DNA from: Verrucomicrobiota bacterium
GTDB lineage: Bacteria > Verrucomicrobiota > Verrucomicrobiia > Limisphaerales > AAA164-E04
Assembly: GCA_047947115.1 (NCBI GenBank)
Contig: CP170459.1
Coordinates: forward strand, 5,440,001-5,504,000
Direction: 5' to 3'
DNA length: 64,000 nt
Part shown: positions 43,876 to 47,927 of the stretch, in pieces
Layout: every line of letters starts with the position of its first letter
How positions within the stretch are numbered: the first letter of the stretch is position 1
Made by a program: the position numbers and the translations under genes
Notes under the pieces: model-generated
The model's input: only the letters and a program-made list of their open reading frames with translations
Told to the model about the DNA's origin: nothing
The model's database searches: none

Positions 43876-43931
43876 CTTCCACTATTCGAGCGGATTCCCG
43901 AAAATCTTACTGGCACTTGCACTGACAGTTT
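43876..43931 (+). repeat. Junction repeat site 1 (left arm L1, core, right arm A)
   Basis: cttc-CACTATTCGAGCGGATTCC-cg-AAAATCTTACTGGCACTTGCACTGACAGTTT. Confidence 0.85.
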
Positions 43932-44025
43932 GCGACTGGGTTTAGGCACAATCTGAGACACAATTCAGTGCTGCAAAGTATGATCATGACTCGATACGGT
44001 AATCAAAACATAACACAAGGCAGAA

Positions 44026-44055
44026 TTGACGGTTTACCAAAAGTTGGTATATGCT
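44026..44055 (+). promoter_or_regulatory. sigma70-type promoter with palindromic operator for parDE
   Basis: TTGACG-18 bp-TATGCT enclosing TACCAA-aag-TTGGTA. Confidence 0.6.
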
Positions 44056-44075
44056 GGTAAAAACGATAGAAGGCC

Positions 44076-44315
44076 ATGTCTCGCAACACAAGTGTCGAAC
44101 TAGGGGATGAAATCGCAGGATTCATCGATCATCAAGTAACCGCCGGACGATACGGTTCCGCCAGCGAAGTCATTCGCGCCGGCATCCGACTCCTCCAAGA
44201 TCAGGAAACGAAAATGGAAGCGCTTCGCCTTGCCTTGAGGGAAGGCGAAGAAAGCGGACCATCGGTTCCGTTCGAAATGGATTCCTTCATACAATCCCGA
44301 AAGAGTAAAAAATGA
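44076..44315 (+). CDS. parD: ParD family (RHH) antitoxin
   Basis: Motifs NTSVELG, GRYGSASEVIRAGIRLL and EGEESG. Confidence 0.9.
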   Translation: MSRNTSVELGDEIAGFIDHQVTAGRYGSASEVIRAGIRLLQDQETKMEALRLALREGEESGPSVPFEMDSFIQSRKSKK

Positions 44316-44605
44316 AGGGCGAATTTCGACTCCGCCCAAAAGCAATCTCCGACCTCGATTCAATTTGGAACTACACCGTTGAGACCTGGGGCGAGGATCA
44401 AGCGGAGCGATACCTCCAAATGCTCAACACCTCCTTCAATGCCATTGCAAAGGATCCAGAACGTGGTCGCCCTTGTGATGAAATCCGCGAAGACTATTTA
44501 AAAATACGAGCCGGGCGACACACGATATTCTTCAGAAATGAACTCTTCGGTATAGACATCATACGTATTCTGCACCAAAGCATGGATGTTGAAAGACATC
44601 TTTAA
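44312..44605 (+). CDS. parE: ParE family toxin
   Basis: Motifs AISDLDSIWNYT, WGEDQAERY and IRILHQSMD. Confidence 0.9.
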   Translation: MKGEFRLRPKAISDLDSIWNYTVETWGEDQAERYLQMLNTSFNAIAKDPERGRPCDEIREDYLKIRAGRHTIFFRNELFGIDIIRILHQSMDVERHL

Positions 44606-44617
44606 TCATCGAACACC

Positions 44618-44824
44618 ATGGTAACTCTAACCATCCGACTGTCAGATGAAAAACACGAACGGCTTCGCCAAATGGCTAGGCAACGCAAAATCAGCATCAA
44701 CAAACTCATAGAGGAAACGTCCACCGCCACCCTGGCCCAGTTCGATGCCGAAGTCCGTTTCAGAGCATTGACTTATCAGTTCGGCATGACGACTCAGCAA
44801 CTCGCCTTTCTCCTGCCGAACTAG
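44618..44824 (+). pseudogene. Orphan chimeric copy of the antitoxin at 46242-46463
   Basis: The first ~150 nt are near-identical to 46242-46392, then the sequence diverges. No PIN partner upstream. Confidence 0.7.
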
Positions 44825-44946
44825 GAGCATTAGCCAAGAGCATGGCTGAAACTGCTGACGACAACAAAGCAGCCAAGTTGGAAGAAAAAATCACCGCCGG
44901 TTTTTACAGAACCAAATAGGAAGATTCCTACCCCGAAATTGCCTGT

Positions 44947-45372
44947 TCAGCTCGCGAAAGGTGCTAAAATCGGAATCAACTGTCTCGCGTTTCGGCGATA
45001 GACACAAAAGTGGCGGTCCAGAGTGAACACCTGACATTTAGGAGTCAGTTCCGACATCCGCACCAGACAAGCATCCGCAAGGCTCATCGGCAAATCTTCG
45101 TATTTCCCCATCAATCGTCGAATATCCTGCCAATGTTCCTCGGCAGAAAACCGGAGGATCAGTTTACCCCGATCGATTGCTTGAAAGAGTGGTTCCACCG
45201 AAAGGCCGTCATCATGTAATAGAAAAATGACTTCTGAAAGGACTGCTTCACATGTGATGAGCGGACTAAAGATGCGATCAAACTGTTCTTTTGCCTAGGA
45301 GTGATATTGATCACCTCGATTGAAGAACGCAACCAACGGCCCGGTGTCAGTGATCAGCTCAACTGCGGCCAT
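44947..45372 (-). pseudogene. PIN-domain (VapC-like) toxin with an in-frame amber stop at codon 26
   Basis: MAAVELITDTGPLVAFFNRGDQYHS*AKEQ...CEAVLSE...MSLADACLV...FTLDRHF. TAG at 45295-45297. Confidence 0.85.
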
Positions 45373-45583
45373 ATCCTTTGAGTGACCGGGTACTTAAATC
45401 TTTCTTCCCCTCAAGGCAACCACACAAATCTGCCAGCGCCTGCCCGAGGCTACCCTCCTGGGTTGTTTGACGCTCAGTAATCAATTCACGAACGAGATCG
45501 CCCTTGGATCGTTTCAATGCATGAGATTGCTGCTCGAGCCAAGCAACCTGTTCCGGTTCCAGTTTAATCGTCAACAATCGCAT
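45359..45583 (-). CDS. RHH/CopG-type antitoxin (VapB-like)
   Basis: MRLLTIKL...SKGDLVRE...DLST...GYG, overlapping the PIN gene start. Confidence 0.75.
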   Translation of the reverse strand: MRLLTIKLEPEQVAWLEQQSHALKRSKGDLVRELITERQTTQEGSLGQALADLCGCLEGKKDLSTRSLKGYGRS

Positions 45584-45682
45584 ACGCCAACCAGTAACAC
45601 CATTCAGCCACCCGAGCAAGACAATTGGAAATATCAGAAAAGGGAAGTTTTCTGCAAAAGTAGAAATCACGCCTCTTGATGA

Positions 45683-45810: not shown

Positions 45811-46254
45811 ATGCACGTGGAAAGAATTATCGTAGTTGACACCAATGTCTTCGTGGCGGCGGTTCGAAGTGCCAAAGGAAGCAACCGAGATATTCTTCGA
45901 CTTTGCCTGAATTACCGCTGCGAACCATTGATGGGAACCAGCTTGTTCTTGGAATTTGAGGATGTGATGGGGAGAGAATTACTCTTCCGTGAATGTCCGA
46001 TTTCTTCCCGCGAACGAGATAATCTTTTTCGGGCGTTCTTGAGTGTCTGCCGATGGACGCATGTGTATTATTCCTGGCGACCAAACCTAGGAGATGAGGG
46101 GGACAACCATGTGCTCGAACTTGCTTTGGCGGGCGGAGCACAAACAATCGTAACAAACAACATCAAAGATTTCAAAGGGGGCGAGTTAGCTTTCCCTGAA
46201 GTTAGAATCCTTCGACCAAACGAATTTATAAAGGAAACCTCATGGCCACGTTAA
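45811..46254 (+). CDS. PIN-domain toxin
   Basis: Motifs VVDTNVFV, WRPNLGDEGDNHVLELA and IVTNNIKDF. Confidence 0.88.
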   Translation: MHVERIIVVDTNVFVAAVRSAKGSNRDILRLCLNYRCEPLMGTSLFLEFEDVMGRELLFRECPISSRERDNLFRAFLSVCRWTHVYYSWRPNLGDEGDNHVLELALAGGAQTIVTNNIKDFKGGELAFPEVRILRPNEFIKETSWPR

Positions 46255-46463
46255 CCATTCGACTTTCAGACGAAAAACACGAACGGCTTCGCCAAATGGC
46301 TAGGCAACGCAAAATCAGCATCAACAAACTCATGGAGGAAATGTCCACCGCCACCCTGGCCCAGTTCGATGCCGAAGTCCGATTCAGAGCACTCGCTCAA
46401 CAAGGATCTGTAAAGGAAGGATTGAAAATTCTGGACAAGTTGGAAGCTGCATTTTCCAAGTAA
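46242..46463 (+). CDS. RHH antitoxin (HicB-like annotation class)
   Basis: MATLTIRL..EKHERLRQMA...ISINKLMEE, overlapping the toxin stop. Confidence 0.8.
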   Translation: MATLTIRLSDEKHERLRQMARQRKISINKLMEEMSTATLAQFDAEVRFRALAQQGSVKEGLKILDKLEAAFSK

Positions 46464-46476
46464 AGCAGCTATCAGG

Positions 46477-46718
46477 CCACAAATCACTGATCCGCGTGTA
46501 CTCTGCCATAACCCGAGCGGACACCTTGAAGAATCGAAGCAATTCAACTCATTTGTTTAGCCCGCCTTCGTCCTTAATTTGGACGGCCTGCCTAGCCGTA
46601 GCTTGCTAATCGGCTCATGGGCATCTTAATTCGATTTTAGGAAACTTCGGCGTGGCATCCTTCCCTTAGCTCGTTTCCTCGCAAGCGAAGGATGGCGGAG
46701 AGGGAGGGATTCGAACCC
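46477..46718 (+). repeat. 242-bp direct repeat copy 1 (L2, core, right arm B, 26 bp of tRNA 3' end)
   Basis: Aligns with 47686-47927 and ends TGGCGGAGAGGGAGGGATTCGAACCC (46693-46718). Confidence 0.92.
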
Positions 46719-46776
46719 AGATGCCCGTTAACTTCCAACAATTTACAACACATCACACCGACTACTCAAGCCAACT

Positions 46777-46833
46777 CTTCCACTACTCGAGCGTACGCCT
46801 CTAAAATCTTACTGGCACTTTTACTGACAGTTT
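46777..46833 (+). repeat. Junction repeat site 4 (L1, core, right arm A)
   Basis: cttc-CACTACTCGAGCGTACGCC-tct-AAAATCTTACTGGCACTTTTACTGACAGTTT. Confidence 0.85.
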
Positions 46834-46875
46834 GAGGCTGGTTTTTTGAGGCGCGTTATGCCCAAGCAAAGGGGC

Positions 46876-47241
46876 CTATTTCACTTTGTCTTTATCTCGA
46901 AAAGCACGGTGCAGAGCATCCGCTTCTAGGAATAATTGCGGTTCGATCTCGGCAATCCGGTTTGGCAAATCCATTGCACCGTGCTTGACCGTCAACACAA
47001 AGATGCCTTCCTCGAATACGGCACAAACAAGAAAATGCTGTCTCACTCGATAAAAGCAAAGAGACCGTGAATAGCTCTGCTTGGTTTTGAGAAGTTTGGG
47101 ATTTTCACGCAAAAGGTAGAGCGCATCTTCGATGGATTGCATGTATTGGGTAGCGACCAATTCTCCCCAATGCTCCATCGAATAAGTCTCGATTTCACTT
47201 AGGTCGAGCAAAGCTCGACGGGATAATCCGAGGTAGACCAT
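46876..47241 (-). CDS. ParE/RelE family toxin
   Basis: Motifs LSRRALLDLSEIETYS, WG, FYRVRQHFLV and HGAMDL. Confidence 0.85.
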   Translation of the reverse strand: MVYLGLSRRALLDLSEIETYSMEHWGELVATQYMQSIEDALYLLRENPKLLKTKQSYSRSLCFYRVRQHFLVCAVFEEGIFVLTVKHGAMDLPNRIAEIEPQLFLEADALHRAFRDKDKVK

Positions 47242-47248
47242 GGCTTGA

Positions 47249-47515
47249 TTACCAACCAGACTTTTCTCTTTTCCTGGCCTCGGTCAGAGCGGAACGAATA
47301 CTTCCGGTAAACTCAACGCTGTGCCCACTGAGAATGTCACGATAGCCCTCCAACACCCCATCCCGAATGCGGGCCGCCTCTATACGTTCCTTTTTTTCCC
47401 GTAACAAATCGCGTAAAAACTCGCTAGGGGTTGCGTACAACCCTTGGTCACCGCAATGACTGTCAATGAATGCGCGGAGTTCATCGGTTAATGAAAGATT
47501 GATCGTGCTAGCCAT
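47249..47515 (-). CDS. ParD-like RHH antitoxin
   Basis: Motifs TINLSLTDELRAFID and YATPSEFLRDLLR. Confidence 0.85.
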   Translation of the reverse strand: MASTINLSLTDELRAFIDSHCGDQGLYATPSEFLRDLLREKKERIEAARIRDGVLEGYRDILSGHSVEFTGSIRSALTEARKREKSGW

Positions 47516-47685
47516 GATGATGTTTATCTTTAGGTAACCACACTACAGCGGTTGGTAAATATCGTCAATATTCGCCAAACTCTTTTACCTCTCCACCGAC
47601 CTGGCTGACTCCACAGGGTTCTTCAAAAGAATAATTGAACAATACGGGTTGGATACCGCTTTTTCCAACTAAAGCAGGTCTCGAA

Positions 47686-47927
47686 CCACAATTCAGTGAT
47701 CCTTGAGTACACCGTCACTATCCGAGCGTACACCTTGAGAATTCGAAGCAAATCAACTCATTTGTTTAGCCCGCCTTCGCTCGTAATTTGGATGGCTTTC
47801 CTAGCCGTAGCTTGCTAATCGGCTCATGGGCATCCTAATTCGATTTTAGGAAACTTCGGCGTGGCAGCCTTCCCTTAGCTCGCATGCTCGCAAGCGAAGG
47901 CTGGCGGAGAGGGAGGGATTCGAACCC
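47686..47927 (+). repeat. 242-bp direct repeat copy 2, overlapping the tRNA-Ser 3' end
   Basis: Aligns with 46477-46718. Confidence 0.92.

Follow-up and report, generated by a model that had tools for sequence, protein, structure and literature searches.

Toxin-antitoxin genes stacked behind tRNA-Ser(GGA) in a Verrucomicrobiota bacterium: a probable case of accretion at a tRNA attachment site

Cis-mobilizable elements (CIMEs) and tandem accretion at attachment (att) sites are described, in the available part of the account, for the ICESt1/ICESt3 model (PMC5704250), and the available text on the tandem ssrA genomic islands of Dehalococcoides (PMC3146451) reports that 3' fragments of the target RNA gene bound the islands, that a conserved motif lies by each, and that many of them have no integration module. 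Here, we analysed a 64,000-nucleotide stretch of a Verrucomicrobiota genome (contig CP170459.1, positions 5,440,001 to 5,504,000; hereafter the window), which carries an array of toxin-antitoxin (TA) genes behind a tRNA-Ser(GGA) gene. An earlier note had read this array as an integron-like cassette-capture system. Most likely, it belongs to a familiar class of genomic hot spots and does not amount to a new integron-like system: with a probability of about three in four, the array is a CIME-like stack of small integrase-less TA islets that accreted at the tRNA att site and were later fused via short repeats. As such, it would represent a small, well-resolved case in which TA genes have accumulated at a tRNA hot spot.

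In common with CIMEs, as far as the portion of PMC5704250 at hand defines them, the units form a stack of remnants at a tRNA 3' end, with att ends but no integrase, and their relatives encode one (genome G289 also a TrwC relaxase). They differ in that the tRNA-side end lacks the arm pair described below and carries a palindromic repeat, that two of three tRNA fragments are gone, and that the units, of 0.8-1.8 kb, hold only TA genes and are at most putatively mobilizable. The Dehalococcoides islands, according to the same part of PMC3146451, share with the array the tandem arrangement between 3' fragments of the target gene, the conserved motif, and the frequent lack of an integration module; however, they involve a serine recombinase and tmRNA, whereas a tyrosine-integrase family and tRNA-Ser, -SeC, -Asn, or -Cys are involved here, with much smaller cargo. 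Integron arrays and clusters of attC sites lacking integron integrases (CALINs) resemble it as runs of small TA cassettes that are set off by repeated boundaries and have no integrase alongside, but the boundaries here have no attC ends and no hairpin and are tied to a tRNA att site. In the literature covered, which takes in neither supplements nor most subscription journals, we found no description of these sites or of the integrase family.

The tRNA att site and the stacked islets

The last 26 bases of tRNA-Ser(GGA) (47902-47927) recur exactly within the array, at 46693-46718, a classic att scar. In the earlier note, the array was described through a short core flanked by one of two left arms (L1, L2) and one of two right arms (A, B), and this description holds for sites, arms, and cargo, but it left unweighed both the exact tRNA copy and the true length of the block shared between sites, about 20-27 bp, which extends beyond the core to AGAAT/AAAAT. 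Allowing up to 2 mismatches, the core pattern has exactly five matches in the window, at 43880, 45702, 46507, 46781, and 47716, just where the note had placed them, compared with a mean of 0.42 in 100 shuffled windows, none of which attained five. Scored with a matrix derived from them, the five sites reach 33-44 bits; elsewhere in the 6.08-Mb genome, the runner-up, which adjoins a tRNA-Asn-like fragment, has 25 bits, and the rest stay below 16. Also confirmed were the arm order along the array (L1-A, L2-A, L2-B, L1-A, L2-B) and the purely TA cargo between arm A and arm L2, although in part as remnants: a Pfam search assigns to the intervals ParD and ParE, a 3'-truncated ribbon-helix-helix (RHH) antitoxin copy, a PIN gene interrupted by an in-frame stop together with an RHH gene, PIN_3 with RHH, and ParE with a ParD-like antitoxin. 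The features are as follows.

43872..43927, + strand: site 1, a truncated L1 with phased repeats (core 43880) and arm pair 43910-43927; a tRNA-distal att end whose tRNA fragment is lost (the homologous end in genome G007 keeps a tRNA-Ser fragment and full L1 before the same ParDE cargo)
44076..44315, + strand: ParD antitoxin (PF03693, E 3e-32)
44312..44605, + strand: ParE toxin (PF05016, E 1.9e-19)
44612..44824, + strand: 3'-truncated copy of the RHH antitoxin gene at 46242 (90% identity over 167 nt), then the 3' remnant of a small open reading frame (ORF) that is whole in genome G001
44947..45372, - strand: toxin gene of the PIN (VapC-like) type, interrupted at codon 26 by an in-frame stop whose position varies among sequencing runs (94% identity to the G007 protein; PF01850, E 3.8e-9)
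45359..45670, - strand: RHH antitoxin-like gene (PF01402, E 0.003, below cut-off)
45683..45750, + strand: site 2, a hybrid of L2, phased repeats, and arm pair 45733-45750, without tRNA fragment (in G001, B-tRNA fragment-L1-core precedes the same arm and PIN/RHH cargo)
45811..46254, + strand: PIN_3 toxin (PF13470, E 2.3e-21)
46242..46463, + strand: RHH/FitA-like antitoxin (weak PF22513/PF01402 matches)
46488..46526, + strand: site 3, L2 and phased repeats without arm pair
46523..46692, no strand: copy of arm B, the tRNA-linked palindromic repeat (91% identity to 47732-47901)
46693..46718, - strand: exact 26-bp copy of the tRNA-Ser 3' end (matches 47902-47927); att scar and likely crossover site
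46719..46829, + strand: site 4, a complete tRNA-distal att end (together with the tRNA copy before it), with spacer, L1, 11-bp-phased repeats (core 46781), and arm pair 46812-46829 (86-88% identity to the G001 and G007 module; layout shared with 11 loci across the order)
46876..47241, - strand: ParE toxin, second family member (PF05016, E 4.4e-10)
47249..47515, - strand: ParD-like antitoxin (PF03693, E 0.009, below cut-off)
47648..47696, + strand: remnant, the 3' end of the unit 2 RHH gene with flank, part of a 280-nt repeat (46439-46718 and 47648-47927)
47697..47735, + strand: site 5, L2 and phased repeats without arm pair (99% identical copy in metagenome contig L048)
47732..47901, no strand: arm B, the tRNA-linked palindromic repeat (DNA fold z -2.95)
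47902..47992, - strand: tRNA-Ser(GGA), the integration target (tRNA/RNA-family search)

No integrase or transfer gene was found inside the array, as is characteristic of CIMEs, and among RNA families only the tRNA attains its gathering score in the window. The stretch is present in 20 of 24 listed sequencing runs (13 studies; mostly marsh, estuary, and seawater), and the hybrid site at 45702 is spanned by single contigs in all eight runs examined (X1, X2, X3, X4, X5, X13, X15, and X17), coverage gaps in X4 and X15 not being counted as evidence. An assembly artefact, against which the note had advised a check, is thus ruled out, because contigs from several independent studies bridge the sites, including 45702.

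The tRNA 3'-end repeat is missing at 43880 and 45702 and present at the homologous ends in G007 and G001. In four of four relatives (G001, G007, G008, and G021), the L1-core-A end follows a tRNA fragment located about 95 bp from arm A, which places the primary crossover at the tRNA 3' end, not in the core; a further genome, G004, has two arm-A copies without L1 or tRNA fragment. In G007, a complete fragment-L1-core-A end precedes ParDE, the first cargo of the window, so that site 43880 has lost its tRNA fragment. In G001, the PIN/RHH cargo of the window stands behind B-fragment-L1-core-A, at the point where the window shows the hybrid L2-core-A. The order of cargo is unlike in each of the three genomes (the window genome, G001, and G007), and relatives do carry different TA genes behind the same ends, as the note had anticipated. 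With respect to the attL and attR of a CIME, the tRNA-distal end is complete at 46693-46829, and the tRNA-side end has the tRNA without an arm pair.

Arm A and a tRNA-targeting integrase family

Arm A contains a CTGRCA direct repeat, with two copies 12 bp apart. This pair has 31 matches in 23 of 401 genomes of the order, compared with none for a reversed-pattern control. After two loci from the genus and one duplicate are set aside, the 30 pair loci returned leave 27, and 18 of these have a tRNA 3' end within 170 bp of the pair, versus 0 of 300 random windows. Two layouts recur: in 11 loci, a tRNA fragment lies 96-123 bp away on the L1 side, the same as at site 46781, and in 7 loci a tRNA 3' end (a whole tRNA in six) lies 48-71 bp away on the far side, and, contig permitting, the opposite side has a tyrosine-integrase gene or the start of one. 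By profile search, the integrase family occurs in 117 of 251 genomes of the order; the pair stands upstream of the integrase in 25 of the 30 family loci returned (one being the profile seed, and kin not being independent), versus 0 of 90 control windows inside genes, and 17 of the 30 have a whole tRNA.

Collectively, these results identify arm A as the arm-pair motif of a tRNA-targeting tyrosine-integrase family, widespread in the order, and L1-core-A as the tRNA-distal att end of this family, composed of a tRNA fragment, 11-bp-phased YACT repeats, and the CTGRCA pair. They thereby define the att architecture of arm pair and phased repeats for a family found in about half of the sampled genomes of this Verrucomicrobiota order, and the motif can serve to locate island ends. 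The CTGRCA pair itself is a putative arm-binding site of the integrase. For mv4, the available text (10.1101/2023.11.06.565760) places two adjacent direct-repeat arm-site pairs in attP, at the end of each arm. Together with the sections at hand on the Apl sites of phage 186 (PMC7498355), it depicts heterobivalent tyrosine-integrase att sites that resemble the present ones in having helix-turn direct repeats near att and the integrase promoter, and adjacent direct-repeat arm pairs; here, however, binding is read from the layout, and the Verrucomicrobiota proteins, PF00589 matches of about 350 aa, have no N-terminal arm-binding Pfam match above cut-off.

Several relatives illustrate the family. 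G289 contains a complete 25-kb element that comprises tRNA-Cys, the pair, the integrase, a coupling protein, and a TrwC relaxase, and whose far end shows the layout of site 46781; the element (L123-L124, G289:C1:424900-450500) also has D5-like primase-helicase and restriction-modification-like genes. G021, from the same taxonomic family as the window genome, carries the integrase at tRNA-SeC, a gene with the same 3' end as tRNA-Ser, and in G012 a broken family member lies directly behind tRNA-Ser(GGA). In six pair loci (L086, L087, L088, L095, L101, and L102), a common motif unrelated to tRNA (CCACAGATG-like) lies at a distance of about 120 bp from the pair, a candidate second, non-tRNA target of the same integrase family. 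A phage vehicle for the array was rejected: viral contigs gave 42 matches to the arm pair, none near a tRNA end and none with the family's integrase, and no match to L2-core.

Phased repeats, junctions, and rival explanations

The core belongs to a longer structure. In the 11 fragment-type ends, two of which come from one genome, 30 YACT motifs lie within 57 bases to the left of the pair versus 1 on the right, with spacings mostly of 11, 22, and 33; L1, L2, and core are units of one 11-bp-phased repeat stretch between att and the arm pair. The core drifts in G008, in G021, and at the tRNA-Asn island of the window genome, while L1 and A persist; the tRNA-Asn fragment there is followed by a 16-bp exact L1 and the arm pair, but by another core. 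In G021, an inverted L1-core-like triplet precedes the integrase gene. According to the available part of PMC7498355, recombination directionality factors bind direct repeats that are spaced by one helix turn and lie at att and at the integrase promoter, and we infer that the phased repeats (core with L1/L2) may bind such a factor. A candidate is the product of the 102-aa gene adjoining the G289 integrase, which has no Pfam match and an Atlas likeness to Cox of 0.92, a lead only. The core as a widespread motif was rejected: the 7 loci of a metagenome scan comprised 5 chance matches and 2 close relatives, and the scan of the order, with 13 matches outside the genus against 27 control matches (counted from the table), did not exceed its control.

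In the reading we favour, a tyrosine integrase acting at the tRNA-Ser 3' end would have laid down islets with the family's att end, in tandem; the islets would have lost their integrase or never had one, and would then have been reshuffled and fused by recombination between shared short repeats. The hybrid L2-core-A would result from loss of a B-att-L1 segment of about 275 bp between two of the near-identical blocks, at no cost of a TA pair. The note was right that this junction arose by exchange within the shared block; a second one of its kind occurs in run X17, where a contig covers 46807-47743 and continues into arm A. A diverged contig of run X3 joins 45616-45717 to B, giving L2-core-B with the left flank of 45702. 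Other breaks fall outside the core, contrary to the expectation that all would lie within it: metagenome contig L048 joins a 43880-type core end to a 46803-type arm and cargo with the break in arm A (the shorter side having 10 bp), only arm A is repeated in G004, the differences in G007 and X3 lie within the antitoxin copies, and in G001 the break is inside B. Family searches, the metagenome scan, and the listed joints of eight runs (whose contigs drop rare forms) yielded neither the empty L1-core-B site nor the circular L2-core-A junction that the note had suggested looking for. The deletion opposite to that of the hybrid would remove a TA pair and be counter-selected by TA addiction, which may be why no empty site was seen.

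Several observations weigh against this reading. The integrase family is absent from the window genome (best match 23.7 bits, E 5.8e-5), and its profile finds no member in G006 or G007 either, so that present mobility is at most conjectural. Autonomous elements have the arm pair 48-71 bp from the tRNA, but it is missing from the tRNA-side ends here (L2-core-B); the units are therefore not textbook CIMEs and, in the strict sense, at most candidate members of that class, because this end is incomplete. A single tRNA fragment is left for three units, and 9 of the 27 arm-pair loci have no tRNA end at the threshold used. Nor does the reading explain why both ends of a unit share 20-27 near-identical bases. 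Finally, the two L2-core-A junctions with different cargo (window and X17), the matching L2-core-B of X3, and an islet in G372 with an exact core next to att also fit a crossover in the core.

An unlikely account, albeit one with some purchase on the data, is that the stack grew mainly as incoming DNA was exchanged by homology or microhomology via tRNA-B and L1-core-A, the att ends being inherited fossils and no integrase having acted on these units. The missing cognate integrase and tRNA-side arm pair would follow from it, as would breakpoints in several repeats, and copies within the genome are as diverged (B, 91%) as ends between species (86-88%). However, the exact 26-bp tRNA duplication and the tRNA-fragment ends in all four relatives are a signature of integrase action at some stage, and the same integrase family is found at tRNA-Ser/SeC in G012 and G021.

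Decidedly less probable is the proposal of the note itself, in which the core is the crossover of a dedicated recombinase acting in trans and A-cargo-L2 cassettes are excised as circles and inserted in tandem, independent of the tRNA att site. Besides the X17, X3, and 45702 junctions, the near-identity of both unit ends speaks for it, as does the similar layout in G372, where an unrelated integrase-less islet between tRNA-Asn fragments has an exact core adjoining att; judged by eye, that layout occurs at none of the 11 other fragment-type ends. The G372 locus (L128, G372:C40, 3800-5800) is a 1.7-kb islet with an AAA/DUF4143 gene and phased repeats on both sides of att. Yet the core shows no dyad symmetry (6-7/11, equal to the genome background, mode 6), it drifts while L1 and A persist, its matches outside the genus fall below the control, no L1-core-B was found in the searches above, and the tRNA integrase family accounts for arm A and L1. 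Junctions outside the core, which the note had itself named as a refuting result, further weaken the claim. We retain at similarly low odds a variant in which the 11-bp-phased block was co-opted as a second dedicated crossover, duplicated at islet ends, so that TA cassettes would excise and stack independently of the tRNA att site while nested in tRNA islands of Verrucomicrobiota; it is kept because of the two independent L2-core-A junctions, the matching L2-core-B state, and the like-built G372 islet. Were the core truly a second crossover site, cassettes would be shuffled here by a new mechanism, distinct from those of integrons and pdif modules.

Integrons often carry TA cassettes, and the genome encodes an IntI above the TIGR02249 cut-off (C1:741267-742214, 435 bits), but a CALIN-like array served by that integrase is highly improbable, as none of the sites has a RYYYAAC...GTTRRRY pair on either strand or a hairpin (z -1.2 to +1.0), and near intI the sites match only chance words of 11-13 bp. 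A crude scan found no convincing attC within 30 kb of this gene (G000:C1:741267-742214), which has insertion sequence remnants upstream. An Xer dif/pdif module, which would have 11-6/8-11 inverted arms and a XerD-type arm, was also rejected, the sites having background-level dyad symmetry and 3-5 mismatches to an 11-bp XerD motif. The note's judgement that the sites are neither attC nor Xer dif is therefore upheld.

Arm B and neighbouring islands

Arm B, the palindromic repeat attached to the tRNA 3' end, is a passenger in its own right and not a recombination arm. In G007 (L020, G007:C56), a B homolog follows tRNA-SeC and leads a GIY-YIG gene at 6079-6555, and G001 has partial B copies without L2-core. 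B was not found in 299 of 300 other genomes searched, the exception being G007 (G001 lay outside that draw), and L2-core-B was not found outside the window species among 21 genomes of the family. As in L020, a GIY-YIG gene in L038 (G004:C212) is led by a palindromic repeat on a tRNA 3' end, and similar hairpins occur behind tmRNA fragments in the window genome.

Elsewhere in the window genome, a tRNA-Asn island stack of about 66 kb (G000:C1:1875800-1942061) has at least two fragment-type ends of the same architecture and no PF00589 match; one end has the exact L1 and arm pair, and another is a full tRNA-side end whose integrase is gone. Five further islands, at tRNA-Thr (4306), tRNA-Tyr (341637), tRNA-SeC (2340339), tmRNA (2495055), and tRNA-Ser(GCT) (3848254), each have their own integrase and their own repeat pair 11-12 bp apart near att, and the tRNA-Tyr island regenerates a whole second tRNA. 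Upstream of the array, at 41332-43849 of the window, lies an operon of a CobW-like GTPase, an unknown 149-aa ORF, and a 4Fe-4S dicluster protein, which ends 20 bp from site 1.

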